A DNA stretch of 64,000 nt, taken from NCBI GenBank assembly GCA_963706025.1, contig CAVPLM010000010.1, positions 1-64,000 on the forward strand. Direction: 5' to 3'. The stretch comes from an uncultured Actinomycetes bacterium (GTDB taxonomy: Bacteria; Actinomycetota; Thermoleophilia; RBG-16-64-13). The notes beneath the pieces are model-generated. The model did no database searches and had not been told where the DNA came from. It saw nothing but the letters and a program-made list of their open reading frames with translations. Shown here in pieces: positions 24,616 to 40,315 of the stretch. The first letter of the stretch is position 1. Each line of letters starts with the position of its first letter. Position numbers and translations under genes: made by a program.

Positions 24616-24755
24616 TTGCTCATGCCGGCATCAAGGGGGCCGACGATCACGACTTTGGTCAAGGTGCATCCAGTGAGATTGCGCGACACGTAATTCCTCG
24701 TGCCGCTATGGTCCAGGTTCTGATGCCATCGACGTTCCCTCTCGCCTTCGCGCAG

Positions 24756-24885
24756 GGTTATCCGCCGAGCAGTATAACGGGCAAAGAGACCTGAGAACAC
24801 CCAGACTTCGTACGGCCACACGTGCCACTGTCTTGGAGCACTTGCAGTCGTGCCGGGTCACCGTTATACTTCGCGAAGTATACCC
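24756..24885. promoter_or_regulatory. Two oppositely oriented ModE-like boxes in the modC/modA divergent region
   Basis: CGTTATAC-N8-GTATACCC (24862-24885, contains perfect 18-bp palindrome 24865-24882) and minus-strand CGTTATAC-N8-GGATAACC (24756-24779). Confidence 0.6.
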
Positions 24886-24907
24886 CTCGTCCTTGAAGGA
24901 GTCGTCC

Positions 24908-25813: not shown

Positions 25814-25908
25814 AGGCGATCGGCCCACGCGAGGAGCAGAAGAGAGAGCACCGACATGAGGGGCCGCTCTCTCCTGCTTCTTTCGCCGGTCCTGAAAGGC
25901 AGGTTATC

Positions 25909-27455: not shown

Positions 27456-27601
27456 GCGTCCTCACCTATCGCTTGGTTTCCTTCCTGCATTCTGCCGTCG
27501 TCCAGACCGAATTCCCCACTGCGGACCCTCCCCATAGGTGAGTCATCGCGGCGGCTGTCATGTGCCGAGTACGCGCCATCTCCTGACGAGGGAGGTCGAT
27601 A

Positions 27602-27946
27602 TTGAAGTTGGAATGTGAGATCTGGCTGACCGAGACTAGGCGAGCCTTTGACCCCGCATGTGTGCGGATCCTCCAAGCCGTCGAGCGAACAGGATCGCTG
27701 CACAAGGCCGCAGCCGAGCTGCGCATTTCGAACAGCTCGGCCTGGCTGATCATCAACGCCGCCGATCAAGAACTCGGCTTTCCCCTCCTGGAACGCAGAG
27801 TCGGCGGAAAGCGGGGTGGTGGCTCCTCGCTGACACCAGAAGGGCGGAAGCTTCTCAGGCGATACTCAGCCGCACAAGTCGAGGTGCAAGCGCTCTTGGC
27901 GGACCTATTCAATCGGCACTTCCCGGAGTGGCGAAAGCTGGGCTGA
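27602..27946 (+). CDS. ModE N-terminal winged-helix regulator
   Basis: L.AVE.TGSL.KAA..L.IS...AW..I, GG..GGGS.LT.EG. Confidence 0.85.
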   Translation: MKLECEIWLTETRRAFDPACVRILQAVERTGSLHKAAAELRISNSSAWLIINAADQELGFPLLERRVGGKRGGGSSLTPEGRKLLRRYSAAQVEVQALLADLFNRHFPEWRKLG

Positions 27947-28113
27947 CCAACGAATAGCGTCATCCGAGCGCAAGCAGACTGACCGAGTATGGAGCCTTGG
28001 TCCTGCAACGGGAAGCCGATAGGACCGAACGCCTTGCGCGAAGCCTTCAGGCACTTCCCGGAGTGGCGAAAGCTGGGCTGACCAACGAATAGCGTCATCC
28101 GAGCGCAAGCAGA
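27915..28113 (+). repeat. 64-bp perfect direct duplication (27915-27978 and 28050-28113)
   Basis: ggcacttcccggagtggcgaaag...cgagcgcaagcaga present twice, 71 bp apart. Confidence 0.92.
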
Positions 28114-28300
28114 TCCGTGGCATGATCTTCGGCATGGGCAATGCTCGCATCTGCTGCATCTGAATCGGCCCCTCAAGCTGGTCAGTGAACGTTTCGGGCA
28201 CAGTAGTGCTGCAGTCACCGCCGACCTGTACGGCCACATACTGGAAGGTCAAGAGCGCAGCTGTGAACCTGCTGGACGAGGCAATGGGGAAGGCGCAAGA
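27995..28300 (+). pseudogene. Tyrosine recombinase (integrase) C-terminal remnant
   Basis: CNGKPIGPNALREAF, then from 28121 HDLRHGQCSHLLHLNRPLKLVSERFGHSSAAVTADLYGH (H-x-L-R, GH, catalytic Y at 28229), then frameshift to AAVNLLDE; no N-terminus. Confidence 0.85.
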
Positions 28301-28459
28301 GTCCACTGGGGTGTCATCCCAAGCGGCTGTCGCGTCGGGTCGGTCGCGTCGCGTCAGTGTCGCGTCAGAGAATGGCGACAGAATCACCACAAAGCATCCG
28401 AACAGCGCTTCCTTGCGAGTAGTGTCGAAGGATTTCGCTCAAGAACTCCCTGCACAAGG

Positions 28460-28501
28460 CGGAGGGGTCGGGATTCGAACCCCCGGTACCGCTTGCGCGG
28501 C
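28460..28501 (-). repeat. tRNA-Ser 3' fragment (att-like copy F, TGA/CGA hybrid)
   Basis: Shares the 32-bp core gggattcgaacccccggtaccgcttgcgcggc with copies at 30261, 35446, 35750; acceptor side resembles tRNA-Ser(TGA). Confidence 0.88.
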
Positions 28502-28577
28502 CCGGCATGAAGAGAGCGGAGGCCCCGAAGGACCTCTGCCAAGGTAGGCCGGCAAGCGGTCGAACCGCGCGTCCTGC

Positions 28578-29222
28578 TCAGCCGCCGGAGGGTAGGCTCA
28601 CCCACACCGCCCCGTCCCATTCGCCACCCAACTGGTCCCCACCCACGCCGACCAGCCCTGCTTTCCAGGTCGCCACAGAGTTGACCTACTGGTCGTCGGG
28701 TCCGCCGAACACGGCCTCGTCATGAGGAACGCGGGTCCAGGTATACCCATCGGCCGATACCCACACGGCCGCATCTGAATCCACCCAGCCCACGGCAGGC
28801 GAGCCCTTCGGGTCGTCCTGGCCCACGGCAACCAGGTCGGGCCCGCCCACGGTCACCGAGTTAATCAGCTGTATGCCGGTCCCGCCGAGGACACCCTCCT
28901 CGTCGGGTACGCGCTCCCACGTGTAGCCGTCGGTTGACACCCACACCGCCGCATCAGCCTCGCCACCGAATTCGCTCCCGCCCACGACGACCAGTCCCGG
29001 CCCGCCCATCGCCACGGATTTAACCACCTGCATGCCCGCTCCACCGAGAGCGCCCTCCTCGTCGGGAACCCGGGCCCATGCCAGCTCCGGACCCGGAACT
29101 GCCACAGTGACGGCCTGGGTGGTGGTCGTCGTGTCCTCACCTGTGCAGGCGGCCAGAACCAGCACCACAGCGAGCAGGGCAAGGATCAGCGCCGCAATTA
29201 GGGCACTTCCCTTGGGCTTCAC
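28578..29222 (-). pseudogene. Repeat-containing lipoprotein with in-frame TAG at 28686-28688
   Basis: Lipobox LAAC, poly-Thr, three W.RVP.E...GG...Q...SV...GLV.VG...DAAVWVS repeats; third repeat continues in frame past the TAG. Confidence 0.7.
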
Positions 29223-29459
29223 CGGACCGCCACCTCCTTCTCGGGCAGGCTAACGAAAAGAGGAGCCAGGCGCGCGTGTGAACTCGCGTAAGGCCCCTCT
29301 CCGGCGGCCCATCCGAGCTATAGATGAGGGGAGCTACTTACTCCCCGCACAGGTTCAGTATTGGCCGGCTTGGCTGCGCGTCAATCGAACTGATGCCACC
29401 GGTCCAAAGACGCCGGGCAGGCCATTCTGGCGCGGGATGCTTCTCCGTCCGTCTCGTTC

Positions 29460-29545
29460 CCTTCGCTGCTGCCTTCGCTGCTGCCGCGTTTGCCCCCGAC
29501 TTGCCCCCGAACTCGCCCGAAAGACCGTAAAACCCGGCGTCCTTG
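29460..29545. repeat. Arm-type repeat block (copy E) without a tRNA fragment
   Basis: ccttcgctgctg x2, then ttgcccccga x2 (11-bp period) and actcgcccgaaaga, matching flanks at 30169, 35354 and 35658. Confidence 0.8.
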
Positions 29546-29609
29546 GGCCGAGCTTCGCCGAAGCGGTCAGGAAGTGACGTGCGCCGCCACCCTGTGCGGT
29601 GGCCGAGGG

Positions 29610-30056
29610 TTACACCTCTTCGAGCATGGTCGTGAACAGATCGTGATGTTCTTCCTCGTCTTCGAGAATCTCTTTGAACATGAAGGCCGTCGTTACGTCG
29701 TGTTCCTTCGTCGCCATCTCGATGATCTGGCGATACATCTCAACGGCCTCCACCTCTGCCTTTGCATCGAGTTCGAGGAACTCCTTCAGGGTGTTCCCAA
29801 CCTCGATCGGTGCAGGCTTGGTCGTGGGCGTGCCGCCGAGATACCAGAGCCTCTCAGCGATCTTCTCAGCATGCTTCATCTCCGCGATGGCGGTCTCTTG
29901 GAACACGTCCCTGACGGCCACGCCCTTCACGCCCACGACCTGGACATGCTGCCACATGTACTGGACGCTTACCTGGATCTCCCTGGCAATCGCACCGTTT
30001 AGCAGTGACTTCAACTCGTCGCTCACTTTGGTCACTGGCTCCAATGAAGCGGCCAT
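29610..30056 (-). CDS. Ferritin-like (bacterioferritin-type) protein
   Basis: LN.AI.RE, E..HAEKIAER...LGG.P, E.EA...Y, IL.DEEEH diiron ligands. Confidence 0.88.
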   Translation of the reverse strand: MAASLEPVTKVSDELKSLLNGAIAREIQVSVQYMWQHVQVVGVKGVAVRDVFQETAIAEMKHAEKIAERLWYLGGTPTTKPAPIEVGNTLKEFLELDAKAEVEAVEMYRQIIEMATKEHDVTTAFMFKEILEDEEEHHDLFTTMLEEV

Positions 30057-30168
30057 CTCACACCCCTTTGCTCTCGTTGACATCGGCCGGTGTTTTGAGT
30101 ATGTACCCAGGCCACATCAGGAAGACACTTGTTCCGTAGCGGTATGCTGCTGTTCCTTGGTGACGAGT

Positions 30169-30303
30169 TTGCCACCGACTTGCCCCCGGACTCTCTCCAA
30201 AGACGCGAAAACCCGGCCTCCGGGGCCGGGCTCTGACATGCCATCTTTGGCTTTCCTAAGCGGAGAGGGGGGATTCGAACCCCCGGTACCGCTTGCGCGG
30301 CAC
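30169..30303 (-). repeat. tRNA-Ser 3' fragment (30261-30303) plus arm-type repeats (att-like copy D)
   Basis: 55 bp identical to copy B (30247-30301 vs 35736-35790); ttgccaccga/ttgcccccgg pair at 30169 and 30180. Confidence 0.9.
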
Positions 30304-30354
30304 GTGACGGCAAGAAGCCACCCCAGCTGCGAAGGCTTGGGAGCAACCACCCAG

Positions 30355-30382
30355 AAAGGGCCGTCCTTGGGGACGGCCCTTT
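30355..30382. terminator. Intrinsic terminator-like hairpin
   Basis: aaagggccgtcc-ttgg-ggacggcccttt perfect 12-bp stem. Confidence 0.7.
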
Positions 30383-30580
30383 GTCATCCCGAGGGTCAGT
30401 GAGGAGCAATCTCAGATGGCACGACCCCTGAACCTCGATCTGAGAGGCAGATCCATAAGAGCCATTGAGCTACTCCCCTCGGCGCCATTCTTCATGACTA
30501 CCCTAGTTTCGCCTCGCATGGAGCGGGCGGACTCCACATCAGCACGTTTCGCGGATGCCGTGAGTCCTCGGCCCTGTTCC

Positions 30581-31749
30581 CTACCGCATCCCCACCGCGG
30601 GGGTGCCTCTCTCCACGCGCATTTGGCGCGCCTTCCGTGGTTGCTTCACGCCGAAGAGGAACCGCGTCACGCTTGTCCTCCTGACCACGACCTCGTAGAT
30701 CAGGAACGTGCGGCGAAGGAGGCGGGCACGATGATGAGGTAGCTCGCCACCGCTCCCAGGTTCCACTGCATCACGAAGTAGGCGATCAAGGCGATCGGCA
30801 CCCAATGCAGGATGTAGAAGGGGTAGGAAGCCTGGCTCAGGTAACGGAGCGCCCTGCTGTCTGCGTTCAAGTAGCGCTTCCCGTAACTCAGCATGGTGAC
30901 GATCACCAGCGTTGCATTGATCATCGCCAGCGGGCCGAGCACCCCGTACATCCAGGGCTGCAACTCGGCGCCCTCGGCGATGCCGTACCCGACGACGATC
31001 GAGACCATCGTGGCCATCACCGGCACCATCAGGGCGAGGGCGACCTTCCCGTTCCGCTCGATCGCTCGTCCGATCCGCGGGTCCGAGAAGGCGAGGAAGC
31101 CGTAGACGAAGAAGGCGATGAGAAGGAAACGCGCTGCGTCGTTGTCGTTAGGGTTGGGCATCACGCGGCGCACCATCTCGAGGAGTATCAGCGGCACGAA
31201 GAAGAGGACAAGGCCGCCGCGGCGCTCGCAGAGGCTGCCTAGACGTGCCGTGAACCGAGAACCCCTGGGCGTCCTCAGGTACAGGAATAACGGCAGCGTC
31301 ACGAGCGAGAACAGGAAGAGGTACAGGATGAACCACAGGTGGCCGAATGGGAACCGGGCGAGCATAGGCAGGTAGGTTCCGAAGAAGCTGCCGTGGTAGT
31401 CCTCCCTGTTCACCGCGTACAGGTAGGAGAGGATCGGCAGGACGGCCACGATGCCGAAGGCGAGCGGCACCAGCAGGCGCTTCACGCGTTCGCCCAGGTA
31501 CCGGCCTGGCGACCGGCGGCCGAGGGCGAGCCAGACGGACGCGCCCGCGATGAAGAACATCAGCGGCATAAGAAATTCGCCGAAGAACGTCGAGACCGCC
31601 ACGATACCCGTGTTCGGCGGGCCCTTCACGACGCTTCCCGCGTTAACCGTGAAGATCGTCGCCGTATGCATGAAGACGAGCATCATTACCGCAAGCGTCC
31701 GCAGCCAGTCGATGTCGTGGCGCCGTTGAGTGTCCACTGCGGATTTCAT
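30581..31749 (-). CDS. Acyltransferase-3 (OpgC-like) membrane protein (frameshift near 30710)
   Basis: RRHDIDWLR, MPL.F.IAG, R.KRLLVP, HLWF..YL, ASYPFYILH; C-terminus FLIYE..RR....RFLFG in the next frame. Confidence 0.88.
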
Positions 31750-31759
31750 GACCTACCTC

Positions 31760-32167
31760 CTATGTCCGATCCGATTCACGATTCGTCTCATCAGCCAGGG
31801 GGCGGATGGCCCCCAGAAGCTCCAGCAGCGGCGCGCCTTTTACCACGAAGGCATCGAAGCCGGCGGCATGCGCCTGCAACCTGTCGAGTTCGGTGCAGTG
31901 AACGGTAAGGGCGGCGATACGGCACCCGGCGAGGTCGGTCTTGATGCGCGTGGCGGCGGTGTAGCCGTCGAGGACCGGCATGGCGAGGTCCATGATCACG
32001 ATGTCGGGGTGAAGGGCGCGCGCCTGCTCAATTGCCTCTCGTCCATTCCTCGCCTCGCCGACGACCTGAAAGTCGCCGACCACCTCAAGGAAGACGCGAA
32101 GGTCTTGACGCACGTCGGCCACATCGTCGACGATTAGGACCCGAGTCTTTGAATCTTGCTTGAACAT
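31760..32167 (-). CDS. Single-domain response regulator receiver (NarL-like REC)
   Basis: LIVDD, VVGEA.NG, PD...MDL.MP.LDG, no HTH. Confidence 0.85.
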   Translation of the reverse strand: MFKQDSKTRVLIVDDVADVRQDLRVFLEVVGDFQVVGEARNGREAIEQARALHPDIVIMDLAMPVLDGYTAATRIKTDLAGCRIAALTVHCTELDRLQAHAAGFDAFVVKGAPLLELLGAIRPLADETNRESDRT

Positions 32168-32274
32168 GCCCGCCTCCGATGGCGTAGATCACGTTTCAAG
32201 CATGACGCCGATGAAGGCGCGGCACATCGATCCGGCGATGTATTTACCGGTGGCCAGCAGGACGGTTTTTCTGT

Positions 32275-32312
32275 TACGACCGGAGGCCTATGCGACTACG
32301 ACTTAGGACCTA
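32275..32312. promoter_or_regulatory. Putative NarL/LuxR-family operator pair
   Basis: TACGAC-N4-GGCCTA (32275-32290) and TACGAC-N4-GACCTA (32297-32312), imperfect palindromes with a 22-bp period. Confidence 0.45.
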
Positions 32313-32466
32313 TCCCGGTAGGCATGTTCTGCTGCGGCCGGCTGCAAAGGCCATGGGCCGTGTCCTCGGAGCAAACAGTCCTCAACGTACCTATCGGTAC
32401 GCCTCTGGGCTGTTTGCCCCTCGATCCTTGCCCATGTCCTTTTCGCTCGGTCTCGCTGCGAACAAC

Positions 32467-33279
32467 CTACCGGGATAGGTCCTTAGGTCTGAGATCGGCG
32501 ACGAATGCCCGCATTCGCGCGAGCGCTTCCCTGGTGAGTTCTTGTAGCAGCGCGAGCTGCTCCTGTACCCCTTCGGGCTCTGTTCGGCGCATCAGTTGGG
32601 CAGAGCGGACCGTGAGCAGGATGCTAAACATGGCTTGGGAAACCGAGTCGTGCAACTTTCGGGCCAGACGGTTGCGCTCTTGCAGAGCCGCCAGTTCGTC
32701 CGCTTGGGCCGCACGCCTCTTGAGTTCGGCGTTGGTCCTCTCCAACTGCGCGAGCATCTTGTCGCTCTCGCTCTTTGCCGCTTCGATCTCCTGGCCGGCG
32801 ATAGCCAGGGCGGCCATGGCCATGCCGATGGCCATCGTGGTCAGAGCCAAGCCGAGCCCCTCGAGTGGACCCGCGAAGATCATCAGAGATACACCGATGA
32901 GGGCGACGCAGACGGCGATCCACAGCCAGCGGAACCACCCTCTGAAGACCATCGCCGCCTGGTAAGCAAGGAGCACGAAGAGGCCGGTCACGTAGTCGAA
33001 CTCCGGTCCCAGGGCGAGCAGCGCCAAGACGATGGCAGATTGTACGACGAAGATGAGGTGGAGCAACGGCGGGTGTCGACTCGGTAGCACCCACACCAGT
33101 GAAAAGAGGGCGAAGAACACGACCAAAAGCGCGACAAACCAGGGGAAACGCGCACTGTACTCGATTGAGATGAGTAGTCTCGCCGCGAGACCTACTCCGG
33201 CCAGGTAGATGACGACAAGCACCACCCGCGGCCAGACGCCAATGTCAGTCAGCTTCGGCAAGACCGTTGCGGATCGCAA
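32467..33279 (-). CDS. Membrane sensor with HisKA_3 domain, lacking HATPase domain
   Basis: TM region, ERNRLAR.LHDSVSQ..FS, ends after AL..MR..V..LRP. Confidence 0.8.
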   Translation of the reverse strand: MRSATVLPKLTDIGVWPRVVLVVIYLAGVGLAARLLISIEYSARFPWFVALLVVFFALFSLVWVLPSRHPPLLHLIFVVQSAIVLALLALGPEFDYVTGLFVLLAYQAAMVFRGWFRWLWIAVCVALIGVSLMIFAGPLEGLGLALTTMAIGMAMAALAIAGQEIEAAKSESDKMLAQLERTNAELKRRAAQADELAALQERNRLARKLHDSVSQAMFSILLTVRSAQLMRRTEPEGVQEQLALLQELTREALARMRAFVADLRPKDLSR

Positions 33280-33961
33280 AGATGGCCAGTTGAGTGCGGT
33301 CCTTGAGTCCTAGCTTGGCCAGGATATGGCTGATGTGCGTCTTCACCGTCTTCTCGCTGATGTAAAACTGACTGGCGATCTCCCGGTTGCTCTTGCCCTG
33401 GGCGACCAATCGGATGACCTCTCGCTCGCGGTCGGTCAGATCGCCCGCAGGTGAGCCTCGATCTGCCGCCGAGGACGGCGCCGAGTCGGCATCCGTGTCG
33501 GGGCCCGAGGGCTCTGGGGCCCGCATGGCTTCCATCAGCTTCCGGGCCACGTCAGGATGCAATCGCGGCTCCCCGCGGGAGGCCGCACGTACGGCGTCGA
33601 CTAGTTCATCGGGGGAAACATCTTTGAGAAGATAACTGGAAGCGCCCGCCTGGATGGCGGGGAACACCTGGGCGTCTTCGGCGAAGCTCGTCAAGGCGAT
33701 CACCCGAGTGTGGACGTCCATCTCCATGATCTGTTTGGTAGCGGACACACCGTCCAGCCGGGGCATCATGAGATCCATCAACACGACATCCGGCGCCGTC
33801 TGCCGCACCATTTCCACCGCCACCTGCCCGTCGGACGCCTCTCCAACAACCGCCATGTCCTCGTGCAACTCGAGAAAAGTGCGTAGCCCTTGACGGACAA
33901 TCTGATGATCGTCCACGATGAGTATCCGGATCTTCTCGCCCTCGATCTCGTGCGTGCTCAT
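33245..33961 (-). CDS. NarL/LiaR-family response regulator (REC + LuxR HTH)
   Basis: VDDH.IVRQGL, LT.REREV..L.A.G.SN.EIA, KTVKTH.S.IL.KL. Confidence 0.93.
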   Translation of the reverse strand: MSTHEIEGEKIRILIVDDHQIVRQGLRTFLELHEDMAVVGEASDGQVAVEMVRQTAPDVVLMDLMMPRLDGVSATKQIMEMDVHTRVIALTSFAEDAQVFPAIQAGASSYLLKDVSPDELVDAVRAASRGEPRLHPDVARKLMEAMRAPEPSGPDTDADSAPSSAADRGSPAGDLTDREREVIRLVAQGKSNREIASQFYISEKTVKTHISHILAKLGLKDRTQLAIFAIRNGLAEAD

Positions 33962-35196
33962 CTCCCACCTCTCTGGCCTAAAGATCGCTGGACCACGACC
34001 CGCGTCCCCTGCCCCGGTGCACTTTCCATTTCAAAGACCCAGCCTATTTCGGCGGCGCGTTCGCTCATGCTCGCCAATCCCATGCCCGTCCCATCCACTG
34101 CGTTCTGAGGGTCGAAGCCTCTTCCCTGATCCCTAATCTCGAGCCTAGGTCTGCCTCCCAGGCGAAGAAGGATCGTTGCCTGAGACGTACCGGCATGCTT
34201 GACGACGTTGTTGAGTGCCTCCCGGGCGATGCGAGCGAGGGCGGTTTCCTCCGCGGCCGACAGCGGCTCGGTGTCGGCATCGAGCGGCTCTTCCTGGACA
34301 TCGAACGAGACGCTGACGCCGTCACTCCGTCGCCGATCCACATCGCGACGTATTGCTTCGACCAGACTCCCGCCGCCGATGGCGTCCGGTTTGAGCTCTG
34401 AAACGAGGAGGCGCATCTCAGCTAGCGCGCTCTCGGCCAACTGACGGAGGCGCTCGAGCTGCTCATCAGCTTTCGATGGCTCGCGTCGTAGGAGGATGGC
34501 GGCAGACTGGCTGGCCAGTGTCATACTGAAAATGGTCTGGGTGACGGAGTCGTGTAGCTCGCGGGCCACCCGGTTGCGCTCTTCGGCCACAACAAGGCTC
34601 TCTACTCGCTCCAGATACTCGGTGAGTTCGGCGTTCGTCATCTCCAACTCGTGGCCCAGGGCCTTGTTGCGAAGGCGCGCCTGCTCGGCCCGGCGCGTCG
34701 CGAACGCATACAGGCCAAGGAAGACGTTGACGGCGGTGTAGACGAGAGTCAACGTCATCGCTTGGGGAAGCTCGTAGTCCCCGAGGAAGGCGAAGAGCAT
34801 AAGAGGTATGAACGCGACCAGCCACAAAGCCCCAAGCCGGCCGAAACGCTGCAGCGCCTGCATGGAGAGGACAGCGAACAGGACGGCGAAGAAGTCCTCA
34901 TCTCCGGGGAGGAGAAACAGGCCAACCACGATGCCTATCTGCAGGACCATGTAGAGAATGGACCACGTCCCCCATCTCTTGGAGATCAACGGTTCACTGG
35001 CAAAGAACACCAGCCAGGCGAGTAGCAGTAGCAACGCCTCGAGCAGGACCGTGCCGTCCTCGAGCACTAGCACCGAACGTAGCACCACACCGGCAAAAAG
35101 GAGTCCGGCGGAGGCATAGAAGACCCAGATGTACGACCTGTCGGAAAACGGGCTCATGTACGGGTCCCAGCGTTGGTGGCGGTTGATGATCATCAT
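33958..35196 (-). CDS. HisKA_3 sensor histidine kinase
   Basis: EERNRVARELHDSVTQ, EALNNVVKHA, D.G.GF, GMGL.SM.ERA, S.PG.GT. Confidence 0.92.
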   Translation of the reverse strand: MMIINRHQRWDPYMSPFSDRSYIWVFYASAGLLFAGVVLRSVLVLEDGTVLLEALLLLLAWLVFFASEPLISKRWGTWSILYMVLQIGIVVGLFLLPGDEDFFAVLFAVLSMQALQRFGRLGALWLVAFIPLMLFAFLGDYELPQAMTLTLVYTAVNVFLGLYAFATRRAEQARLRNKALGHELEMTNAELTEYLERVESLVVAEERNRVARELHDSVTQTIFSMTLASQSAAILLRREPSKADEQLERLRQLAESALAEMRLLVSELKPDAIGGGSLVEAIRRDVDRRRSDGVSVSFDVQEEPLDADTEPLSAAEETALARIAREALNNVVKHAGTSQATILLRLGGRPRLEIRDQGRGFDPQNAVDGTGMGLASMSERAAEIGWVFEMESAPGQGTRVVVQRSLGQRGGR

Positions 35197-35353
35197 AGTC
35201 CAGGACCGTGGATGGAAGAAGCGGCCACGCCTTGTTTAGCCTCGGCGATCAGGGGGTCGCTTTGGCGTATTTGCTGGCGCCGGACCACCATTCCGCGTCT
35301 AATCTGTTCCAGGACCGGTCTGTGCTGTTGTGTGCTGTCTGATGGTGCCGACT

Positions 35354-35445
35354 TTGCCCCCGACTTACCCCCGAACTCGCCCGAAAGATGTGAGAGGCTC
35401 GACCCTGGCGGCCGAGCCTCGCCTCAGGAAACCCCTGCAAATGAG
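35354..35445. repeat. Arm-type repeat flank of att-like copy C
   Basis: ttgcccccga/ttacccccga (11-bp period), actcgcccgaaaga, and acccctgcaaa shared with the flank of the intact tRNA-Ser. Confidence 0.8.
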
Positions 35446-35525
35446 CGGAGAGGGGGGATTCGAACCCCCGGTACCGCTTGCGCGGCAGAACGGTTTTCGA
35501 GACCGCCCCACTAAGCCGCTCTGCC
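35446..35525 (-). pseudogene. Pseudo-tRNA-Ser(CGA) lacking the 5' acceptor strand (att-like copy C)
   Basis: Minus strand ggcagagcggcttagtgg-gcggt-ctCGAaa-accgt-long variable arm-GGTTCGAATCC-ctctccg; 5' GGAGAGG absent. Confidence 0.82.
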
Positions 35526-35629
35526 GGCGGGGGCTTGGCGCTAGCTCACGGCGCACCGGGCATGATGCCTCGTGTCTTCGCGTCCACCTTCGTCCATTCG
35601 TTGCGTGCGATGACTGCCTCACGGTTTCT

Positions 35630-35790
35630 GCTCCCTTTCGGCTCCCTTTCGGCGTCTTTGCCACCGACTTGCCACCGAACTCGCCCGAAAGACGCAAAAA
35701 CCGGGCTTTTCGGACCGGGTCTCGACACACGATTCTTGGCTTTCCTAAGCGGAGAGGGGGGATTCGAACCCCCGGTACCGCTTGCGCGGC
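35630..35790 (-). repeat. tRNA-Ser 3' fragment (35750-35790) plus arm-type repeats (att-like copy B)
   Basis: gctccctttcg x2, ttgccaccga x2, actcgcccgaaaga, then the shared tRNA core. Confidence 0.9.
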
Positions 35791-35913
35791 TCCGGTCACA
35801 ACGCGGTTTCTGGGATGAAAGCTGGCCCTTGCAGAGCTTGCCACGTTCATCGACCACCTGCGCGCTATAGAGGAACGGAGACTCAAAGAGCCCTGGGTTC
35901 CCAGAGGTTACGA

Positions 35914-38700
35914 CTAGACATCCGTGACGGTGAGCACCATGGTGTCGGAGCCGACGCCCCCATTGTTGTCCGTTACGGTGAAGGTCACCACGTACAGACC
36001 AGGTGTGGTCAATCTGATCATCTCAGCCACCTTCCCAAGTGAGGTGGCTGTCGGTTCAGTCACTATCAAGTCGACCGTGAGCCCATCCACGTAGGCCAGG
36101 GCTGTATGGGTGTCGGAAGCATCGGCATCTGTAAAGTTGGCGCCCAGTGGGAAGAGGGAACCCGCGGTCACGCTCTTGTCGAGACCCGCGTCGACAACTG
36201 GGGGATGATTGGATGAAGGAGGAGTGCCCCCGATCCGGGCGAGTACGTTGTAGAGCACCTGAGCCGTCTCCCCGCGCGTGGCCACCCTCCACGGATCCCA
36301 AGAAGGTCCGAAGCCGACCAGTCCGGCCAGGAGCCCGTTGTACTCGGCCATCTGCATGTTGCGAGCGTGATCGAGGCTGAAGTCACCCAGTGTTCCGACA
36401 TAGCCCGCGGGTGGATCCGTCAACACGCCGGGGCGCAGATTCTGCACGGCTCTCACCGTCATGGTGACCACCTGGGCGCGTCTGATGCCCACATACGGGG
36501 CGAAGGTAGTCGCCGTCTGCCCTCTGGTGATGCCGGCGAGATAGGCGTTCGCCACGTACTCGTGCGGGTAGAGGCTGTTGACGACGCCTGGACCGGGCAG
36601 TATGTCGGGACCCAGGTCGGTGAAAGGCACCGCAGGGTCGGGCCAATCGTCCTCCAGCACCAGAAAGCCAATGACCCCGCAGATCATCTTGGCGAACTGG
36701 GCACGATAGACGCTGTTATCGGGCCGGAACTCCCAGGTATCTCCGACCTGGTAGCCGTCGATGATGTGGGCGTCGCGCATGCCGTTGATGGCATCGTAGT
36801 AGGGGTGTCCAGACGGAACATCGGTGAAAGGCGTTGGATCAGGGGTATCGCTTGGTATCAACTCGATGGTGTCGCTGACCAGCCCGTCTCCCGCCACGTG
36901 GCCATGGACGTCCTCGAAGCTGCACCACACGGTCTTGATTCCCAGCCCAGTGGTCAAGGTCCACGACTTGGTAGCCGCGTAGGGCTCCCAGGCCGACCAG
37001 GTAGTGCCGTCGTTGCTGAATCGCATCCGCATGAGGGGTGAGCCGTCGGTCACTGTGTAGGTGAGCGTGACGGTGGTCGAGTCGGTCTGGGCCGCACCGC
37101 CATTGATCGTGAAGCCGCTGATGACCGGGCTGATGCGGTCCACGTATACCACCGGCTGATCGGTGCTCGTTTGCGAGTTGCCGGCCAGGTCCAGAGCACG
37201 GGCGTAGATCACGTGACCCACCCCGGCGTCCTCTACCGGGAGGCTCCAGTCGTAGTGCCAGGTGGCCAGCGGGGTCCCTGCACCCGAGTCGATGGTGGCC
37301 TCCTGCCAGGGCCAGCCATCGATCGACACCTGCACCGACGTCACGCCGACGTTGTCGGTCGCTGTGCCGGAGATCACGGCCGGCGACACGCTCAGGACTG
37401 CGCCGTCGGCAGGAGCGAGGATCTCCGTCATCGGCGGCTCGACGTCATGCGTGGCCACGAATATCTCCCAGTCACCCCCGGCGTCACGGCCCTGCCACAC
37501 CACCGCTTCGTTTCCCAGCCGAGGATACCGGTCGTCATAGGGACTGTTGCTCAGGTTCACCACTTCGCCGGTGGGGGCGTCGCCGGGTGGGAGATAGACG
37601 TATACCTGGGAGACGCCCGGGCCACCGAACCAGACCGCCCCACGACCGGTGACGTCGGTGGGCAGATCATTCGCCGTGTTGTTGGTGAGCGTGGCGTCTT
37701 TCCAGATAGGACTGACGGGCGTCCTGGTGGCCAGTCGCACCTCCCAATCGGTGCCGTCGTAGTACCGCCAGCCTATCGTGGTACCCATCGCCGAGACATC
37801 TATGAAGGGCTCCGAGTCGTTCCGCGTGTTGTTGGTCAGCTTGGTCGTGACACCGTCGGAGCGGTAGAACACCTCCGAATCCCCGTCGTCTTGCCCCTCC
37901 CAGACGATCTGGTGCTCGCTGATCTCCGGGAAGACATCGTCGTAATCGTTATCGGTGACCCGGCGGACCATGGACCCGTCCCAGTACTGGATCTCGAAGT
38001 CGAAACCCGGATCATGGATGGATTGAATCTGCCAGACGACCCATGACCCGTCGGTCTGAGGGTGGCTTATTTGACCATGGTCGCCCACGACCGATTGGAG
38101 CGTGGCCGTAGCGATGTCGTAGACGTACACGAGGTCGAGGACAAGGGACGTATCATGGCACACCCACACCACCAGGTATCCGTGGATCTGTACCTGAGTG
38201 TCGTCATAGGTGTTGTCGGTCAGCTTGGTGGTGAGGCCGGTGGAGAAGCGGTGCAGGTAGATCTCCCAATCTCCGTCGGCATCTCGGCCTTGCCATACAA
38301 CAGCGTCTCCACAGATCTTCGGGTATGCTTCGTCAGTAGCGTTGGATGTAAGCTGCCTGCCTAGGCCAAGCCGATAGTTCCAGGCCCATATCTCCGAGTC
38401 TTGGCCCGCAGGCTTCTGTTGCCACACGACTACCGGGTTGGTGGTGTCAATGTCGGGCCATTCGTCGGCTGCCGCGTTGTCCGTGATCTTGTTGAGAGTC
38501 CATCCAGCGGGTCCGCCCTCTATGGCCGAGGCGGGTGTCCCCGATAGAAGAACGGCCGTCACGGCCAGAAGCAACGTAGCCGTAAACACCAAGAGACGGT
38601 GAACTGCTTCCGGTACTGCGGGGGGCGTCCTCATGCTCAGCCCTATCGGGATCTTGGTATGCTGCTTCAGTCGAAGCATCCGTCTCTCCCTTCCTGGCAC
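35914..38700 (-). CDS. Secreted S-layer homology (SLH) domain protein with beta-propeller-like repeats and Ig/PKD-like domains
   Basis: Signal peptide; repeated LT.N..DD..P.I....VVW.G.D.D.EI; Ig-like SGTATDNVGV; FTDVP..HPY..AI, RAQFAKMI, TRGE.AQ SLH motifs; start uncertain. Confidence 0.85.
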   Translation of the reverse strand: MPGRERRMLRLKQHTKIPIGLSMRTPPAVPEAVHRLLVFTATLLLAVTAVLLSGTPASAIEGGPAGWTLNKITDNAAADEWPDIDTTNPVVVWQQKPAGQDSEIWAWNYRLGLGRQLTSNATDEAYPKICGDAVVWQGRDADGDWEIYLHRFSTGLTTKLTDNTYDDTQVQIHGYLVVWVCHDTSLVLDLVYVYDIATATLQSVVGDHGQISHPQTDGSWVVWQIQSIHDPGFDFEIQYWDGSMVRRVTDNDYDDVFPEISEHQIVWEGQDDGDSEVFYRSDGVTTKLTNNTRNDSEPFIDVSAMGTTIGWRYYDGTDWEVRLATRTPVSPIWKDATLTNNTANDLPTDVTGRGAVWFGGPGVSQVYVYLPPGDAPTGEVVNLSNSPYDDRYPRLGNEAVVWQGRDAGGDWEIFVATHDVEPPMTEILAPADGAVLSVSPAVISGTATDNVGVTSVQVSIDGWPWQEATIDSGAGTPLATWHYDWSLPVEDAGVGHVIYARALDLAGNSQTSTDQPVVYVDRISPVISGFTINGGAAQTDSTTVTLTYTVTDGSPLMRMRFSNDGTTWSAWEPYAATKSWTLTTGLGIKTVWCSFEDVHGHVAGDGLVSDTIELIPSDTPDPTPFTDVPSGHPYYDAINGMRDAHIIDGYQVGDTWEFRPDNSVYRAQFAKMICGVIGFLVLEDDWPDPAVPFTDLGPDILPGPGVVNSLYPHEYVANAYLAGITRGQTATTFAPYVGIRRAQVVTMTVRAVQNLRPGVLTDPPAGYVGTLGDFSLDHARNMQMAEYNGLLAGLVGFGPSWDPWRVATRGETAQVLYNVLARIGGTPPSSNHPPVVDAGLDKSVTAGSLFPLGANFTDADASDTHTALAYVDGLTVDLIVTEPTATSLGKVAEMIRLTTPGLYVVTFTVTDNNGGVGSDTMVLTVTDV

Positions 38701-38916
38701 GAACCTGACCGAACCGCGATGGACTCCTGCCCCGCTGGATCAATGGTGCTTGAGATGAAGCGCCTTTGAAGGAGGCCGGACTCGAAGTTGGGCGTCTACC
38801 CCAATCCTATTACCATGCGTGGTTCAACGCAATGTTCAGTCGGCTTGGGGCCCGCCGAGTATGTGGAATGCTTGTCGTCTTGTGTCCTTGTGTCCGTCTC
38901 GCACCCATGAGTGCTG

Positions 38917-38967
38917 TCAGCAACGATTTCAGCAACGATTTCCTCCGGTGCCAAAATGGTGCCAAAA
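38917..38967. repeat. Paired short direct repeats (arm-type sites) downstream of tRNA-Ser
   Basis: tcagcaacgatt x2 (38917-38940) and ggtgccaaaa x2 (38947-38967). Confidence 0.8.
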
Positions 38968-39035
38968 CCAGGCCTGAAGGTCGTTGGCGGCCAGACTAGC
39001 TAGATTATCTGCGAGTAAAACCCCTGCAAACAAGG

Positions 39036-39122
39036 CGGAGGGGGCGGGATTCGAACCCGCGAGACCTTGCGGCCTGCCGGTTTTCAAGACCGGTGCGATC
39101 AACCAGACTCCGCCACCCCTCC
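39036..39122 (-). tRNA. tRNA-Ser(TGA)
   Basis: GGAGGGG acceptor stem, ccggt-ctTGAaa-accgg anticodon arm, long variable arm, GGTTCGAATCC, discriminator G. Confidence 0.95.
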
Positions 39123-39263
39123 GCAGTACTGGCTGCGCGGCCGCCCGGGAGAGCGTCGCTCATCGGCACCGCACAGCGCGGCCCGATGACGCGCCCAGGG
39201 CCGCGAGGCTTCGGCTCGCCGGCCCCGGCCAGGGCTCAGTCGCGGATGCGCCGAGTATAGCTC

Positions 39264-39800
39264 CTAGTAAACGGTGACGCTTGCCGCGGCCAGCAGGATG
39301 GTGGCGAGGATGGCGATCACGATCCCGGCTATGCCGATGCCGAAGGTCACCCAGGACCACGTCTTGGCCTTGCGCGAGGACTGCTGGGCGCCGGTGATAT
39401 CTCCCAGGGCCAGCTTGTTCCCCACCTGGCTCGCATACACCACTGCCACGATGCCGGTGGGCCAGAAGCAGAGGATCAGGGTGGCGATCGCCCAGCCCAT
39501 GTAGCTGGGGACCCGGGGGACTGCCCCATATGGGGGCGTCGTCTTGTAGTACTGAGGAGCTGGGTAGGCCGGAGGGTACTGCGGCTGGTACTGCTGCTGG
39601 TACTGCTGCTGGTAGGGGGGCGGCTGCGATCCCGGCTGGTAGACTGCCGGTTGCTGCTCGACCGGCTGCCCGGCCGGCTGCTCGGTCGCCTGCGCCCCCG
39701 GCTCTTGCCATTGCTGCCGGTACTTGTCCAGATCCAGGCCACACGCGGCGCAGAACCTGGCCGACTCCTCGTTTGTGCCACCGCACTGCGGGCAATACAT
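39264..39800 (-). CDS. CD225/dispanin family protein with N-terminal zinc ribbon
   Basis: CPQC..C..C, Q/P/Y-rich linker, WAI.TL.LCF.P.GIVA..YA.QV...A..SS.KAK.W. Confidence 0.88.
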   Translation of the reverse strand: MYCPQCGGTNEESARFCAACGLDLDKYRQQWQEPGAQATEQPAGQPVEQQPAVYQPGSQPPPYQQQYQQQYQPQYPPAYPAPQYYKTTPPYGAVPRVPSYMGWAIATLILCFWPTGIVAVVYASQVGNKLALGDITGAQQSSRKAKTWSWVTFGIGIAGIVIAILATILLAAASVTVY

Positions 39801-40027
39801 GTGTGCCTCCTGTTGCGCCTGTCTTACGCCAGTCTCAGATGTCGCTCTCCCGGTTCTTACCCCATGTTAGACGCTGAAGCCGGCAAAGCGTATGTCCGAA
39901 CAACTTACCGTACCATCGGCTGCCGGAGGAAAGTGCTAAAGAACGGCGAAATTGTGCCGACAACGGAGGCATAGGGCGGAGGGACGCGCCCGAGTGACGG
40001 ACGTGTCGAAGGCGTGGAGGCTAAGCC

Positions 40028-40291
40028 ATGAAAGCGGCGTATCTCGGCGGTTTGAGAGGTCATCAGGCGGCGATCTACCGGCCGGGAGCGGGCTGGAGCG
40101 GGAACGACCAGGTTCGGCGCTTCGGTCGTCAACCGCGGGCGTTCAAGAACGACGGCCACCTGCACGTGTGCCCTTTGACCACCACCCATCGGCGTCGTCC
40201 CGGACTGCGAACCAAGACCTTCATAATCTCAATGGTGGTCGTCGTTGCGGCTCTGTTGACGTTGGTTCTGAACGCGGGCTCCCAGCTCTAG
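40028..40291 (+). CDS. Hypothetical small membrane protein
   Basis: GGAGG RBS, 87-aa ORF with C-terminal TM helix. Confidence 0.45.
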   Translation: MKAAYLGGLRGHQAAIYRPGAGWSGNDQVRRFGRQPRAFKNDGHLHVCPLTTTHRRRPGLRTKTFIISMVVVVAALLTLVLNAGSQL

Positions 40292-40315
40292 AGGCACGAG
40301 GAGAGGCTCGAGGCT

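Follow-up and report, generated by a model that had tools for sequence, protein, structure and literature searches.

The roughly 18 kb from position ~20,990 to 39,034 of the 64,000-nt stretch of DNA analysed (the window) is a variable island at a tRNA-Ser(TGA) hot spot, made up mostly of integrase-less cassettes, each with a conserved attachment module of ~190 nt. Five junctions within it belong to a single attachment-module family, whose main home is the array behind a different gene, tRNA-Ser(CGA), both in this genome (G000) and in other genera of its Thermoleophilia family. One of these junctions, F (28458–28503, minus strand), is a hybrid, CGA-type to the left and TGA-type to the right, with the switch inside the 13-bp GGGTTCGAATCCC; comparison with both tRNA-Ser genes confirmed this. 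We consider it likely that the island was built by serial site-specific insertion at its tRNA anchor, with F arising from one CGA x TGA exchange.

ARAGORN finds a single intact tRNA-Ser(TGA) gene in the window (39034–39122, minus strand, 3' end toward lower coordinates; Rfam tRNA 58.4 bits), which anchors the island. Synteny of this gene and the genes upstream of it extends to G001, G002, G003, G004 and G007. At the other side, BLAST to G001, G002, G004 and G007 shows conserved core synteny beginning at ~20,990 and continuing downward; in those four genomes it restarts 3.0–6.6 kb behind the tRNA, against 18 kb here, and hot-spot content is different in each relative examined. Directly after the tRNA gene lies an arm of integrase-side type (38900–39033, minus strand; sequence and repeat scan), consisting of the spacer TTGTTTGCAGGGG and then two copies each of TTTTGGCACC (38947–38967) and AAATCGTTGCTG (38918–38941). 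The layout is that of the integrase-adjacent arms in G013, G011, G066 and G014; no integrase follows the arm here. The distal island end (20990–23472, plus strand) carries, by Pfam, a CLC channel gene (21104–22438), of which G001 has remnants only, and a formamidase-like gene (22504–23472). Older island content (23484–28113) includes a LysR-type HTH fragment, a ModD-like gene and molybdate-type ABC transporter genes (23509–27455; Pfam), a perfect 64-nt duplication with 135-bp spacing (27915–27978 and 28050–28113), and a weak CGA-like T-arm (piece G, 23484–23510), a sixth and weaker piece that the earlier note had not listed. The genome is a metagenome bin of 3.7 Mb with 7.3% contamination; the organism is an uncultured soil or sediment actinobacterium.

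The T-loop motif GGATTCGAACCC, allowing at most one mismatch, has six occurrences in the window, where 0.44 would be expected; none of 100 shuffles reaches that number. Between the anchor and F all cassettes and junctions are on the minus strand. Cassette 1, with a TGA-type right end and a CGA-type left end, encodes a 928-aa surface protein with SLH, Big_7 and PKD domains (35914–38700; Pfam). Its left end is junction B (35620–35807; nhmmer and alignment), in which a CGA-type fragment (35749–35790), with decayed traces up to the anticodon loop, is joined to a class I attachment module of spacer, hairpin with T run and two copies of TCGGTGGCAA (nhmmer match 35654–35762, E 8.7e-28). Junction C (35338–35525; nhmmer match 35343–35457) contains a near-complete tRNA-Ser(CGA) pseudogene (35445–35525) that keeps the CGA anticodon loop, as had been noticed earlier, and part of a D-arm of foreign type; it is without the 5' acceptor strand, its Rfam tRNA-clan match of 35.2 bits falls under the threshold, and behind it come a TTTGCAGG-type spacer, a hairpin and TCGGGGG(T/C)AA repeats. 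Cassette 3 (cargo 30562–35226; Pfam) encodes a histidine kinase (33958–35196), a LuxR-type response regulator (33245–33961), a kinase fragment (32467–33279), a receiver protein (31760–32167) and an acyltransferase_3 protein (30700–31749). Next to it is junction E (30153–30301), a CGA-type fragment (30261–30301) with a class I module (nhmmer match 30157–30273, E 1.2e-26), whose upstream context is the same at the matching junctions of G067 and G060. Beyond it lie cassette 4a, with a ferritin/Dps-like protein (29610–30083; Pfam), and an orphan class I module (29473–29578; nhmmer E 1.5e-24) that the earlier note had not listed, its tRNA part deleted down to ..CCGCTTCGG. Cassette 4b (28686–29400) combines a conserved promoter-like site and structured leader (29221–29400; alignment and nhmmer leader matches) with a 178-aa protein (28686–29222) that matches no Pfam family.

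The earlier note had traced the fragments to a tRNA-Ser(CGA) gene, distinct from the TGA anchor, and this is borne out. The genome has two intact tRNA-Ser(CGA) genes (C7:19263–19353 and C8:41197–41288) with exactly the variable arm of the fragments, and their upstream stretches are similar (257 bp at 95.7%). Fragments B, C and E, which in tRNA sense read GCCGCGCAAGCGGTACCGGGGGTTCGAATCC..CTCTCCGC, match these genes, and the same fragments are arrayed downstream of them. In full, a module runs from the tRNA-Ser(CGA) segment between T-loop and 3' end through a spacer and a terminator-like hairpin to two pairs of short direct repeats, which resemble integrase arm sites. With nhmmer we found 34 modules in the genome, most of them in arrays behind tRNA-Ser(CGA) and four in the window; among the genomes examined, five further genera of this Thermoleophilia family have modules too. 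When 53 copies from six genomes were aligned, conservation was at least 90% from the T-loop to CTCTCCGC and in both copies of TCGGGGGCAA, whereas the tRNA part began at varying points on its 5' side; scattered point changes and changes in C-run length occur in internal copies. A 22-nt T-arm word was present in 20 of 24 genomes of the family and in 0 of 16 genomes from other families of the class; the reversed pattern, used as control, gave no matches.

Junction F can be divided precisely. Positions 28483–28503 are the CGA-type variable arm and 5' T-stem, 28470–28482 are the core GGGTTCGAATCCC, which is all that the TGA and CGA genes have in common around the T-loop, and 28458–28469 are of TGA type, covering the 3' T-stem (with one mismatch), the acceptor strand, the discriminator and CC. 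To the left of the T-loop, 21 nt agree fully with the CGA gene, and a comparison of 27 nt gives 11 edits against the TGA gene; to the right, 13 nt show one difference from the TGA gene and three from the CGA gene, or four of 15 against the latter when two further bases are counted, ungapped. The segment CCCCTCCGCC is absent from all of the other ~30 CGA-type copies of the genome. The hybrid reading of F, proposed earlier at 28460, thus stands with corrected extent and with its crossover mapped to the core. What does not stand is the appeal to a TGA-like flank, since the spacer ..TTGTGCAGGGAGTTCTTGAG.. is a generic integrase-side spacer, found also after copy C and after integrase-adjacent intact tRNA-Ser(CGA), tRNA-Leu(TAA) and tRNA-Ser(TGA) genes in relatives. 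Beside F, this spacer and GACGCGAC repeats form an old integrase-side arm (~28330–28457). The same stretch (28100–28457; translation, paralogues and relatives) holds an integrase stump 210 bp from F, the C-terminal ~50 aa of a tyrosine recombinase (28100–28250, plus strand; PF00589 match 28118–28240; motifs HDLRH..GH..LYGH), pointing at F.

Several cassettes have counterparts elsewhere. Cassette 3 (30562–35226) is 92–96% identical to a segment of G067:C3 (L173 11033–15519), a different genus, where it sits inside a tRNA-Ser(CGA) array, and its acyltransferase part is found in the tRNA-Ser(CGA) array of G060 as well. The ferritin cassette (29538–30220) is 89.5% identical to one in the tRNA-Ser(CGA) array of G046 (L175 11818–12490), and cassette 4b is 85–88% identical to G045:C4. 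Core DNA identity is 63–74% to G067 and 63–81% across G067, G046 and G060. These similarities show that at least one cassette has been exchanged recently between genera, lying behind tRNA-Ser(CGA) there and behind tRNA-Ser(TGA) here. The earlier suggestion that cassettes move between two tRNA-Ser loci therefore holds between genomes, with one correction: CGA-type cassettes also occur in arrays behind tRNA-Leu(TAA) and tRNA-Met. On C5, the tRNA-Leu(TAA) gene and its own arm are separated by five pure CGA-type sites (691141 to 685644) from four Leu-type fragments (681510, 680017, 677954 and 665685); behind tRNA-Met on C18 there is likewise a CGA-type block. Neither array holds a hybrid.

Full-length members of the integrase family are found in relatives. 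In seven of the 13 loci with the best family homologues, a tRNA gene lay within the ~1.5-kb flanks fetched (Ser-TGA twice, Ser-CGA, Leu-TAA, Cys twice and SeC). In the four loci checked base by base (both Ser-TGA, Ser-CGA and Leu-TAA), the integrase converges on the tRNA 3' end and the spacer is of the type seen at F. In G072, a class I module accompanies tRNA-Ser(CGA), and 5 kb downstream lies an integrase of full length (387 aa). The cassettes have ordinary cargo without any recombinase; Pfam detected integrase only as stumps (30 ORFs of the window and 102 ORFs of other arrays), and an integrase lies within reach of the arm motif at only two of 48 genome loci and two of 70 metagenome loci. 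The genome contains no intact cognate integrase.

In the mechanism we favor, a tyrosine integrase of this family (represented by the stump beside F and, in relatives, by the full-length proteins beside tRNA 3' ends) would act in trans, with strand exchange inside the 7-nt T-loop and the two halves of the T-stem serving as core sites. The sequence right of the loop and the arm would come with the incoming cassette, rebuilding the tRNA, and the sequence left of the loop would stay behind at the far end. F would then be the product of a single exchange between a CGA-type site and the TGA gene, either by insertion into that gene or by deletion between nested CGA-type and terminal TGA-type sites, its right half being the tRNA-Ser(TGA) 3' end from the head of an older element that carried an integrase. 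Exchange in the T-loop is suggested by F, by a 174-bp mini-insert with flanking 16-bp repeats starting at the T-loop AAT (a junction also present in G067 and G060), and by a CGA-type module remnant, starting at TAATCC, 1.2 kb behind tRNA-Ser(TGA) in an independent bin of the sister species G003. The shared T-loop is not the sole route, because the Leu and Met arrays hold CGA-type cassettes without hybrids; the Leu T-loop differs (TTCGAGT), so those blocks need nesting or co-transfer.

Other observations count against this mechanism. F is the only clean cross-type junction in the genome. The stump is 57–60% identical over 45–49 aa to Leu- and CGA-adjacent homologues, but 39–43% to TGA-adjacent ones. 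The resident tRNA-Ser(TGA) differs from three same-genus relatives in both T-stem strands, whereas a pure T-loop swap would alter one strand only, and simple T-loop exchange alone does not make cassette 1. About a dozen module copies reach as far as the anticodon loop; because this is another classical site of crossover, the T-loop is a proposed rather than a proven exchange point of the class I integrase. No circular or empty-site form was seen, nor was any excision or integration observed.

A possible but less probable history has the CGA-type sites arriving not via the tRNA-Ser(TGA) gene but as passengers within a TGA-type element, or as a single such site that became a secondary landing pad and grew its own array, with F formed later by site-specific deletion between the last CGA-type and the terminal TGA-type sites. 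The chemistry is the same; what changes is the sequence of events. A block of precisely this kind, free of hybrids, is found at the tRNA-Leu(TAA) locus on C5 and likewise behind tRNA-Met on C18, and cassette 1, with its TGA-type arm and CGA-type left end, fits a composite element; yet the origin of the first CGA-type site within the TGA-type element is left unexplained, and deletion between unlike sites still requires exchange within the 13 bp, so that a cross-type event remains. Much less probable is that F arose without an integrase, by RecA-type homologous recombination or gene conversion between tRNA-Ser sequences. Thirteen contiguous identical bases, all that the partners have around the loop, are short for efficient homologous exchange but fit the overlap-identity rule of tyrosine recombinases, and the stump lies close to F. 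On the other side, ~34 near-identical repeats per genome are ample substrate, and integron cassettes are reported to be shuffled by homologous recombination after transformation (PMC12614218).

That an assembler misjoined repeats in a metagenome bin, placing cassettes of the CGA array behind tRNA-Ser(TGA), is very unlikely. The contamination (7.3%), the alike upstream stretches of the two tRNA-Ser(CGA) loci (257 bp, 95.7%), which hint at strain mixture, and the repeat length of 40–190 nt would favor it. However, a single contig carries both island ends, arranged as in four relatives, contigs of up to 1.2 Mb point to long-read assembly, the independent G003 bin also has its CGA-type module behind tRNA-Ser(TGA), and a hybrid across 13 common bases cannot come from an assembler. 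We find it barely credible that F is a decayed CGA-type fragment resembling the TGA 3' end by chance: other internal copies do show point and C-run changes, but here three to four changes within 15 nt all go toward the TGA state, the neighboring 21 nt (variable arm and T-stem) and 10 nt (loop and stem) are unchanged, and no other CGA-type copy has CCCCTCCGCC. The interpretation of the earlier note is supported on this point and overall.

The kind of structure is already known from tandem accretion, cis-mobilizable elements (CIMEs) and tycheposon islands. Chromosomal integrons and integrase-less attC clusters form long one-directional arrays of small, promoter-poor or single-operon cassettes, each with one recombination site and no recombinase of its own, that serve as a gene reservoir. 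The island resembles them in all these respects, but there is no intI beside the array, no folded single-strand site of attC type and no common promoter; its sites are double-strand tRNA copies with arm-type repeats, as in lambda-type systems. In Dehalococcoides, direct 3'-end copies of a small RNA gene (ssrA) reportedly mark islands stacked at one locus (McMurdie 2011), as tRNA copies do here; that system is said to use a serine recombinase and a single target, the tmRNA, whereas the sequences here point to tyrosine integrases and several tRNA targets.

CIMEs such as those of the ICESt1 family likewise stack at a tRNA gene 3' end, having lost integration genes and kept att sites, with composite excision possible, in the description that PMC5704250 gives. 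The units here differ in their very small size (0.2–7 kb) and great number (34 modules in 3.7 Mb), in sharing a one-sided module of ~190 nt, in not being visibly decayed ICEs or IMEs, with no transfer genes seen, and in that modules lie also behind tRNA genes other than the one copied. Prochlorococcus tycheposon islands adjoin tRNA genes including tRNA-Ser(TGA) and, as outlined in bioRxiv 10.1101/2020.12.28.424599, share back-to-back elements with partial tRNA copies between them, fragmented integrases and scattered further partial tRNAs; their cargo is adaptive. Their integrases are described there as clustering by target tRNA, each island with its own type, while here modules of one tRNA occupy islands of three others and one junction is a cross. 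Tycheposon hallmark genes (the deep-branching recombinase and replication genes) were not noticed in the ORFs scanned. Mycobacteriophage Ms6 offers a precedent, close in its actinobacterial host, T-loop site and use of isoacceptor genes of one amino acid: as related in PMC1762012, it recombines in the tRNA-Ala T-loop, whose seven bases are the proposed strand-exchange site, and the tRNA-Ala gene that it uses varies between hosts with slight differences in the core, a one-base difference having blocked integration. Ms6 is, however, a phage with its own integrase and single insertions, in contrast to a cassette stack, and the partner cores here differ at two stem positions per side.

As the genome lacks an intact cognate integrase, the array is probably immobile, barring the arrival of a helper element. 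The hybrid joint at F shows how tRNA-linked cassettes can seed a new landing site.

The tRNA fragments behind the anchoring tRNA-Ser gene derive from another serine isoacceptor. ARAGORN calls two tRNA genes in the window, one of them the anchor, tRNA-Ser(TGA) at 39034-39122 on the minus strand. The T-loop word GGATTCGAACCC, with up to one mismatch allowed, is found at six window sites (23487, 28471, 30271, 35456, 35760 and 39047) where 0.44 are expected; none of 100 shuffles reaches six. Read in the tRNA sense, junctions B (35749-35790), C (35445-35525) and E (30261-30301) all run from GCCGCGCAAGCGGTACCGGGGGTTCGAATCC to CTCTCCGC, and copy C extends further upstream through a CGA anticodon loop and a partial D-arm, but lacks the 5' acceptor strand. 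An earlier note had claimed that these fragments were copied from the CGA rather than the TGA isoacceptor; this is correct, because the source genome (G000; 3.66 Mb in 30 contigs, completeness 92%, contamination 7.3%) holds two intact tRNA-Ser(CGA) genes, C7:19263-19353 and C8:41197-41288, with exactly the variable arm of the fragments.

Several smaller points concern these genes and fragments. The two intact tRNA-Ser(CGA) genes are identical, each with a PIN-domain gene ahead of it and a similar 257-bp stretch upstream (95.7%), while their downstream arrays differ, with some cargo types recurring (ECF sigma factor and BNR protein); the two loci may represent two strains in one bin, given the 7.3% contamination, or a true duplication. 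ARAGORN also calls a second tRNA-Ser(tga) at C3:831195-831285 and a third tRNA-Ser(cga) at C5:563061-563146, both of which look unlike the other serine tRNAs and are probably false. The C run is six long in B, C and E and seven in the true gene. We base nothing on this difference: the "extra G" that most public contigs show at 30266, 35451 and 35755 derives from many loci, and therefore does not settle whether the six-C run is real or a homopolymer error. The piece termed G (23484-23510) was considered as the far end of an old element, but its right side has no acceptor-like sequence and we keep it as a weak remnant only.

Junction F (28458-28503) has a different composition. To the left of the T-loop, 21 nt are those of the CGA gene, the TGA gene being 11 edits off over 27 nt; to the right, 13 nt show one mismatch to the TGA gene and three to the CGA gene (4/15 ungapped when the next two bases are counted). 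Around the loop the two tRNA-Ser genes have only the 13 bp GGGTTCGAATCCC in common, corresponding to 28470-28482 in F, and we therefore place the crossover there. A possible objection is that F is simply a CGA-type copy altered by point decay. This would take three to four changes, all of them TGA-ward, beside 31 unaltered bases, and the TGA acceptor string is in none of the other CGA-type copies of G000; we consider it very unlikely. The proposal that F is a hybrid thus holds for its CGA-type left and TGA-type right halves, but the accompanying argument from a TGA-like flank is weaker, as the spacer is generic. The same ..TTTGCAGG..TTCTTG.. spacer lies behind the CGA-type copy C, and TTTGCAGG-type spacers lie behind an intact tRNA-Ser(CGA) in L058 (a locus fetched from another genome), behind tRNA-Leu(TAA) on C5 and behind integrase-adjacent tRNA genes of relatives. 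Judged from these sequences, such a spacer is a generic trait of the integrase-side arm.

The locus as a whole fits a tRNA-targeted island with tandem accretion, having an intact target and displaced 3' direct repeats. It shows one intact tRNA gene, five same-strand fragments and one orphan arm, and F is the most distal clean junction, bearing the target tRNA's own 3' end. The tRNA-Ser(TGA) gene and the genes upstream of it are syntenic in three genomes of the same genus (G001, G002, G003) and in two of other genera (G004, G007), and the conserved core picks up again at window position ~20,990. The tRNA and the core are 3.0 kb apart in G002, 5.3 kb in G007, 6.4 kb in G001 and 6.6 kb in G004, whereas the present island measures 18 kb; apart from CLC gene remnants in G001, the intervening DNA of these genomes is unrelated to it. 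Unrelated content between two conserved flanks places the junctions in a variable island at a hot spot. According to Pfam, the cargo between tRNA and F comprises an SLH/Big_7/PKD surface protein, two-component kinases and regulators, an acyltransferase, a ferritin/Dps protein and one family-less protein, with no recombinase found among it. Just beyond F, on the opposite strand and aimed at F, lies the sole integrase trace of the island there, a PF00589 match at 28118-28240 that represents a C-terminal tyrosine recombinase stump of 50 aa with the motifs HDLRH..GH..LYGH. Past the stump, a perfect 64-nt duplication precedes a truncated regulator and an operon for a molybdate-type transporter.

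Three further features of the island were noted. The two copies of the 64-nt duplication (27915-27978 and 28050-28113, spaced 135 nt) lie where the truncated regulator, of LysR type, meets the truncated integrase, and may be the scar of a deletion that took most of the integrase. A 99-nt direct repeat (28821-28919 and 28980-29078, 76% identical, 159 nt apart) falls in a 178-aa ORF of cassette 4b, whose protein is therefore internally repetitive. Contigs from public sequencing runs X2 and X5 join 21003 to 22417, skipping 21004-22416, one of them with at least 255 letters on each side. The CLC channel gene at the island's distal end is therefore missing from a related population.

The sequence behind B, C and E, ~130-190 nt in each case, recurs elsewhere as an attachment module. 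Its order is tRNA 3' end, spacer (mostly GCTTCAGAAAGCCAAGAAT), hairpin with a T run, CGCGTCTTTCGGGCGAGT, and two copies of TCGGGGGCAA, followed in most copies by ACGGAC-type repeats. When a profile made from four copies was applied at E 1e-3 or better, it gave 34 matches in G000. Four of them are in the window, one of these being an orphan at 29473-29578 that has lost its tRNA part. Outside the window there are seven matches on C7, 11 on C8, five on C5, four on C18, two on C11 and one on C3, so that the search for a similar array downstream of tRNA-Ser(CGA), which the earlier note had called for, was successful on both C7 and C8. In the arrays checked, the modules share the strand of the anchoring tRNA. 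When 53 copies from six genomes (G000, G001, G003, G007, G011 and G019) were aligned, the stretch from T-loop to CTCTCCGC and the repeats were kept in at least 90%, with the tRNA part ragged at its 5' side. Counts of a 22-nt T-arm word are 28 in G000, 21 in G001, six in G002 and five in G003; among further genomes it is present in 20 of 24 from the family versus none of 16 from the other families of the class (the reversed-word control gave 0); one contig, G001:C6, alone has ~30 copies across 100 kb. The arm motif was found at 48 loci in a species-representative genome collection, in bins nearly all titled Thermoleophilia, Actinomycetota, Actinomycetes or Gaiellales (the exceptions are one 2.3-kb contig of a Burkholderiales-titled bin and three loci from an unclassified bin), and on 70 metagenome contigs; no viral contig had an exact match to the arm pattern.

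Modules are also present in an array with a different anchor, a 27-kb array at C5:665685-692514 behind tRNA-Leu(TAA), whose arm is of a separate type (two copies of TTGGTGAC); the gene-proximal part has five Ser(CGA)-type sites, followed by four Leu-type fragments that each start from the anticodon loop. The window's stump has its closest paralogue in this array, an integrase stump at 677599-677772. A second recurring sequence is a structured leader of ~150 nt on the minus strand (window 29221-29400), preceded by a promoter-like TTGACG, 17 nt and TATACT, and running up to the start codon of genes for small, secreted-looking proteins that are unlike one another in their coding parts. Searching with nhmmer gave 10 leader matches in G000, partly inside and partly outside cassettes (among them C11:72323-72503, C11:94846-95028, C5:588665-588836, C5:679066-679231, C5:684686-684853, C5:685283-685465, C8:8579-8751 and C18:9226-9359). 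RNAalifold predicts 41 pairs for six copies, five with compensatory changes, and the leader is possibly an unnamed cis-regulatory RNA; Rfam searches with the leader and the attachment module returned nothing past tRNA-clan echoes.

We found specific instances of cassettes shared across genera. When the cassette region was searched by BLAST against 61 genomes of the family and the matching loci were fetched, three cassette matches lay within tRNA-Ser(CGA) arrays of other genera. Two parts of the kinase/acyltransferase cassette, 30562-32307 and 32482-35226, are 96% and 92% identical to G067:C3, where the copy sits in the same orientation inside an array behind an intact tRNA-Ser(CGA) (L173 19786-19876), and its distal junction has the upstream context seen at E. 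In G060, a tRNA-Ser(CGA) array has the acyltransferase-regulator part at 85% identity, and in G046 another has the ferritin cassette at 89.5%. Core DNA in the same window is only 63-74% identical for G067, 68-78% for G060 and 73-78% for G046; the cassettes have therefore been exchanged horizontally. The near-identical cassette in another genus shows transfer as such, whatever its mechanism. The copies compared point to the tRNA-Ser(CGA) array as the usual home of these cassettes; in the window they lie behind tRNA-Ser(TGA) instead, which agrees with the suggestion that cassettes move between the two tRNA-Ser loci. The sister species G003 has a CGA-type remnant with a CGA-type (class I) module 1.2 kb behind its own tRNA-Ser(TGA).

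For current excision, contigs from four public metagenome runs were aligned to 20500-40400 and gave no evidence of it. Joints linking 35775/35776, 30290 or 28485 to ~39078, and 29523 to 35716, were considered as excision products and rejected: they fall in repeated tRNA/att sequence with unmatched letters between the two sides, and we read them as intact tRNA-Ser genes of other organisms or as other att copies. The cover of the surface-protein cassette (cassette 1) relative to the kinase/acyltransferase cassette is uneven between public runs and not usable as evidence.

Where does strand exchange take place? Williams in 2002 reportedly sorted tRNA-targeting tyrosine integrases into sublocation classes, with exchange in the 7-nt loop for the T-loop class. 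In that class the T-stem halves serve as core sites. A precedent from the same phylum is mycobacteriophage Ms6, whose attB lies in the tRNA-Ala T-loop; strand exchange is proposed to occur in the 7-base loop, and the tRNA-Ala gene used varies by host (PMC1762012). Recombination in the T-loop had been proposed for the present array, and the switch in F speaks for it, as do a remnant and repeats that start in the loop. The tRNA part of the G003 remnant begins at TAATCC, within the T-loop. Directly behind the C8 tRNA-Ser(CGA) is a 174-bp mini-insert (C8:41278-41478; L006 5278-5478), non-coding and with an inverted T-arm-like stretch, flanked by 16-bp direct repeats that run from the loop AAT to the discriminator base; it has further copies at C8:75633, C11:71940 and C3:5996, and its junction recurs in G067 (L173 ~19615) and G060 (L176 ~10856). 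The spacer of the next module is split by a second insert of ~155 bp, and both inserts look like miniature non-autonomous elements using the same site. Only the stretch from loop to 3' end is universally conserved among copies. Against a simple T-loop picture, however, ~12 copies extend to the anticodon loop. The left ends of 72 copies (a mapping for qualitative use only, as a few indel-bearing copies are mis-anchored) spread from anticodon loop to T-loop with no single sharp peak.

F may have arisen in either of two orders: insertion of a CGA-type unit at the TGA gene itself, or later recombination of a nested CGA-type site with a terminal TGA-type site. Either order needs a single exchange of unlike sites within those common 13 bp, and for an identity of this length a tyrosine recombinase is a better fit than homologous recombination. 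Judged by base pairing, giving tRNA-Ser(TGA) a CGA-type 3' half would preserve the acceptor stem, with one G-U pair in it, and put a C-C mismatch into the T-stem. The T-stem of the resident tRNA-Ser(TGA), compared over window 39046-39070, is GCGGG/CCCGC where G001, G002 and G003 have AGGGG/CCCCT. Both strands thus differ, a further point against a simple T-loop picture; the former is also found in G004, G011 and G013 and the latter in G007. This may be a compensatory change, or a longer 3' segment may have been replaced by an element. CGA-type blocks also occur, without hybrids, in arrays at tRNA-Leu(TAA) (C5:692431-692514, loop TTCGAGT) and at tRNA-Met (C18), and therefore nesting or co-transfer must occur as well.

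The cognate recombinase was sought among the cassettes, in the genome and in its relatives. No integrase was found in the four or five younger window cassettes, no intact one among 102 cargo ORFs of the C7, C8, C11, C18 and C3 arrays, and no intact cognate among the eight PF00589 matches of G000 (two Xer-like, one beside tRNA-Met, the rest stumps). Integrase homologues within reach of the arm motif were limited to G001:C6 (two broken genes) and L058 among genome loci and to L120 and L150 among metagenome loci, L150 being the same sequence as L058; those of G001, L058 and L120 are truncated or interrupted, and we rejected them as the cognate enzyme. The integrase family is well recognizable all the same: with the L058 integrase as query, 38 of the 61 family genomes had homologues at E 1e-20 or better, and at seven of the 13 best homologue loci a tRNA gene was present within the fetched flanks of ~1.5 kb: Ser(TGA) in G013 and G011, Ser(CGA) in G066, Leu(TAA) in G014, Cys in G006 and G022, and SeC in G018. 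Four of these loci (G013, G011, G066 and G014) were read base by base; in each the integrase converges on the tRNA 3' end, with only a TTTGCAGG-type spacer and a short repeat pair between them. F and its stump have this same layout. Integrase phylogeny gives no support for a target assignment, because the closest homologues of the stump are not TGA-adjacent. In G072, a full-length homologue of 387 aa lies 5 kb downstream of a tRNA-Ser(CGA) with a class I module.

Arrays of this kind have known relatives. Under the tRNA-island rule (PMC4383910), a regenerated target and a displaced fragment mark the island ends; PMC5704250 describes how elements accrete in tandem at tRNA genes and how some keep their att sites after losing the recombination genes. 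In the window and on C7, C8, C11 and C18 the cassettes resemble cis-mobilizable elements (CIMEs) in being att-flanked and, by Pfam, without integration or transfer genes; 132 chosen ORFs included no relaxase, coupling protein or conjugation gene, which is weak evidence. They differ in showing no descent by decay from an ICE or IME, looking instead like bare cargo plus one module. Integron attC sites are imperfect palindromes, recombined as folded single strands; the sites here are tRNA copies with arm repeats that are direct, not inverted. Nor do the arrays begin like integrons: there is no intI, attI or common promoter at the array head, no recombinase was found there, and upstream of the C8 tRNA-Ser(CGA) are genes for a PIN protein, a CoA-transferase, SelR and a cation efflux protein, while a gene for a CD225/zinc-ribbon protein is upstream of tRNA-Ser(TGA). 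Tycheposons carry a family-specific tyrosine (or large serine) recombinase and a replication module; no primase, polymerase or helicase was seen here, save a DnaB_C fragment on C18. The tycheposon islands described in bioRxiv 10.1101/2020.12.28.424599 do have stacked elements parted by partial tRNAs, and broken integrases. A limited search on Thermoleophilia tRNA islands and integrases found no published account of such arrays, which does not prove absence. We regard the kind as known. What sets the present case apart is how densely the modules lie (34 in 3.7 Mb), a conserved module that is one-sided, the presence of one module family in islands of four tRNA genes, and the preserved cross-isoacceptor junction.

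We tentatively suggest, as a reading that we consider possible but on balance doubtful, that this Thermoleophilia family runs a tRNA-based, integron-like form of gene capture, in which recombinase-less cassettes circulate as a shared pool, helper integrases act in trans and arrays are seeded across tRNA genes. Each cassette would be tagged by a one-sided module of ~190 nt (tRNA-Ser(CGA) from T-loop to 3' end, terminator and arm repeats), and rare helper elements would supply the integrases. Because exchange would need only the T-arm core, a new array could be seeded wherever a cassette meets a tRNA gene or att site of compatible core, and the pool would have spread from tRNA-Ser(CGA) to tRNA-Ser(TGA), as recorded in F, and by nesting to the tRNA-Leu and tRNA-Met islands.

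The usual description of tRNA-anchored islands is one integrase, one tRNA, one island. In contrast, a single module family here tags dozens of tiny recombinase-less cassettes per genome, behind four tRNA genes, and is common to several genera of an uncultured actinobacterial lineage widespread in soil and sediment. The hybrid junction, as a natural record of the module's jump to a new tRNA, bears on how tRNA integrases evolve in target specificity and how a genomic island gets its start. The module, the two T-arm cores (two stem positions apart per side) and the candidate integrases are testable substrates that would let the exchange point be mapped in a lineage without genetics. If the trans-acting model is true, these arrays would be functionally analogous to integrons without belonging to their family.
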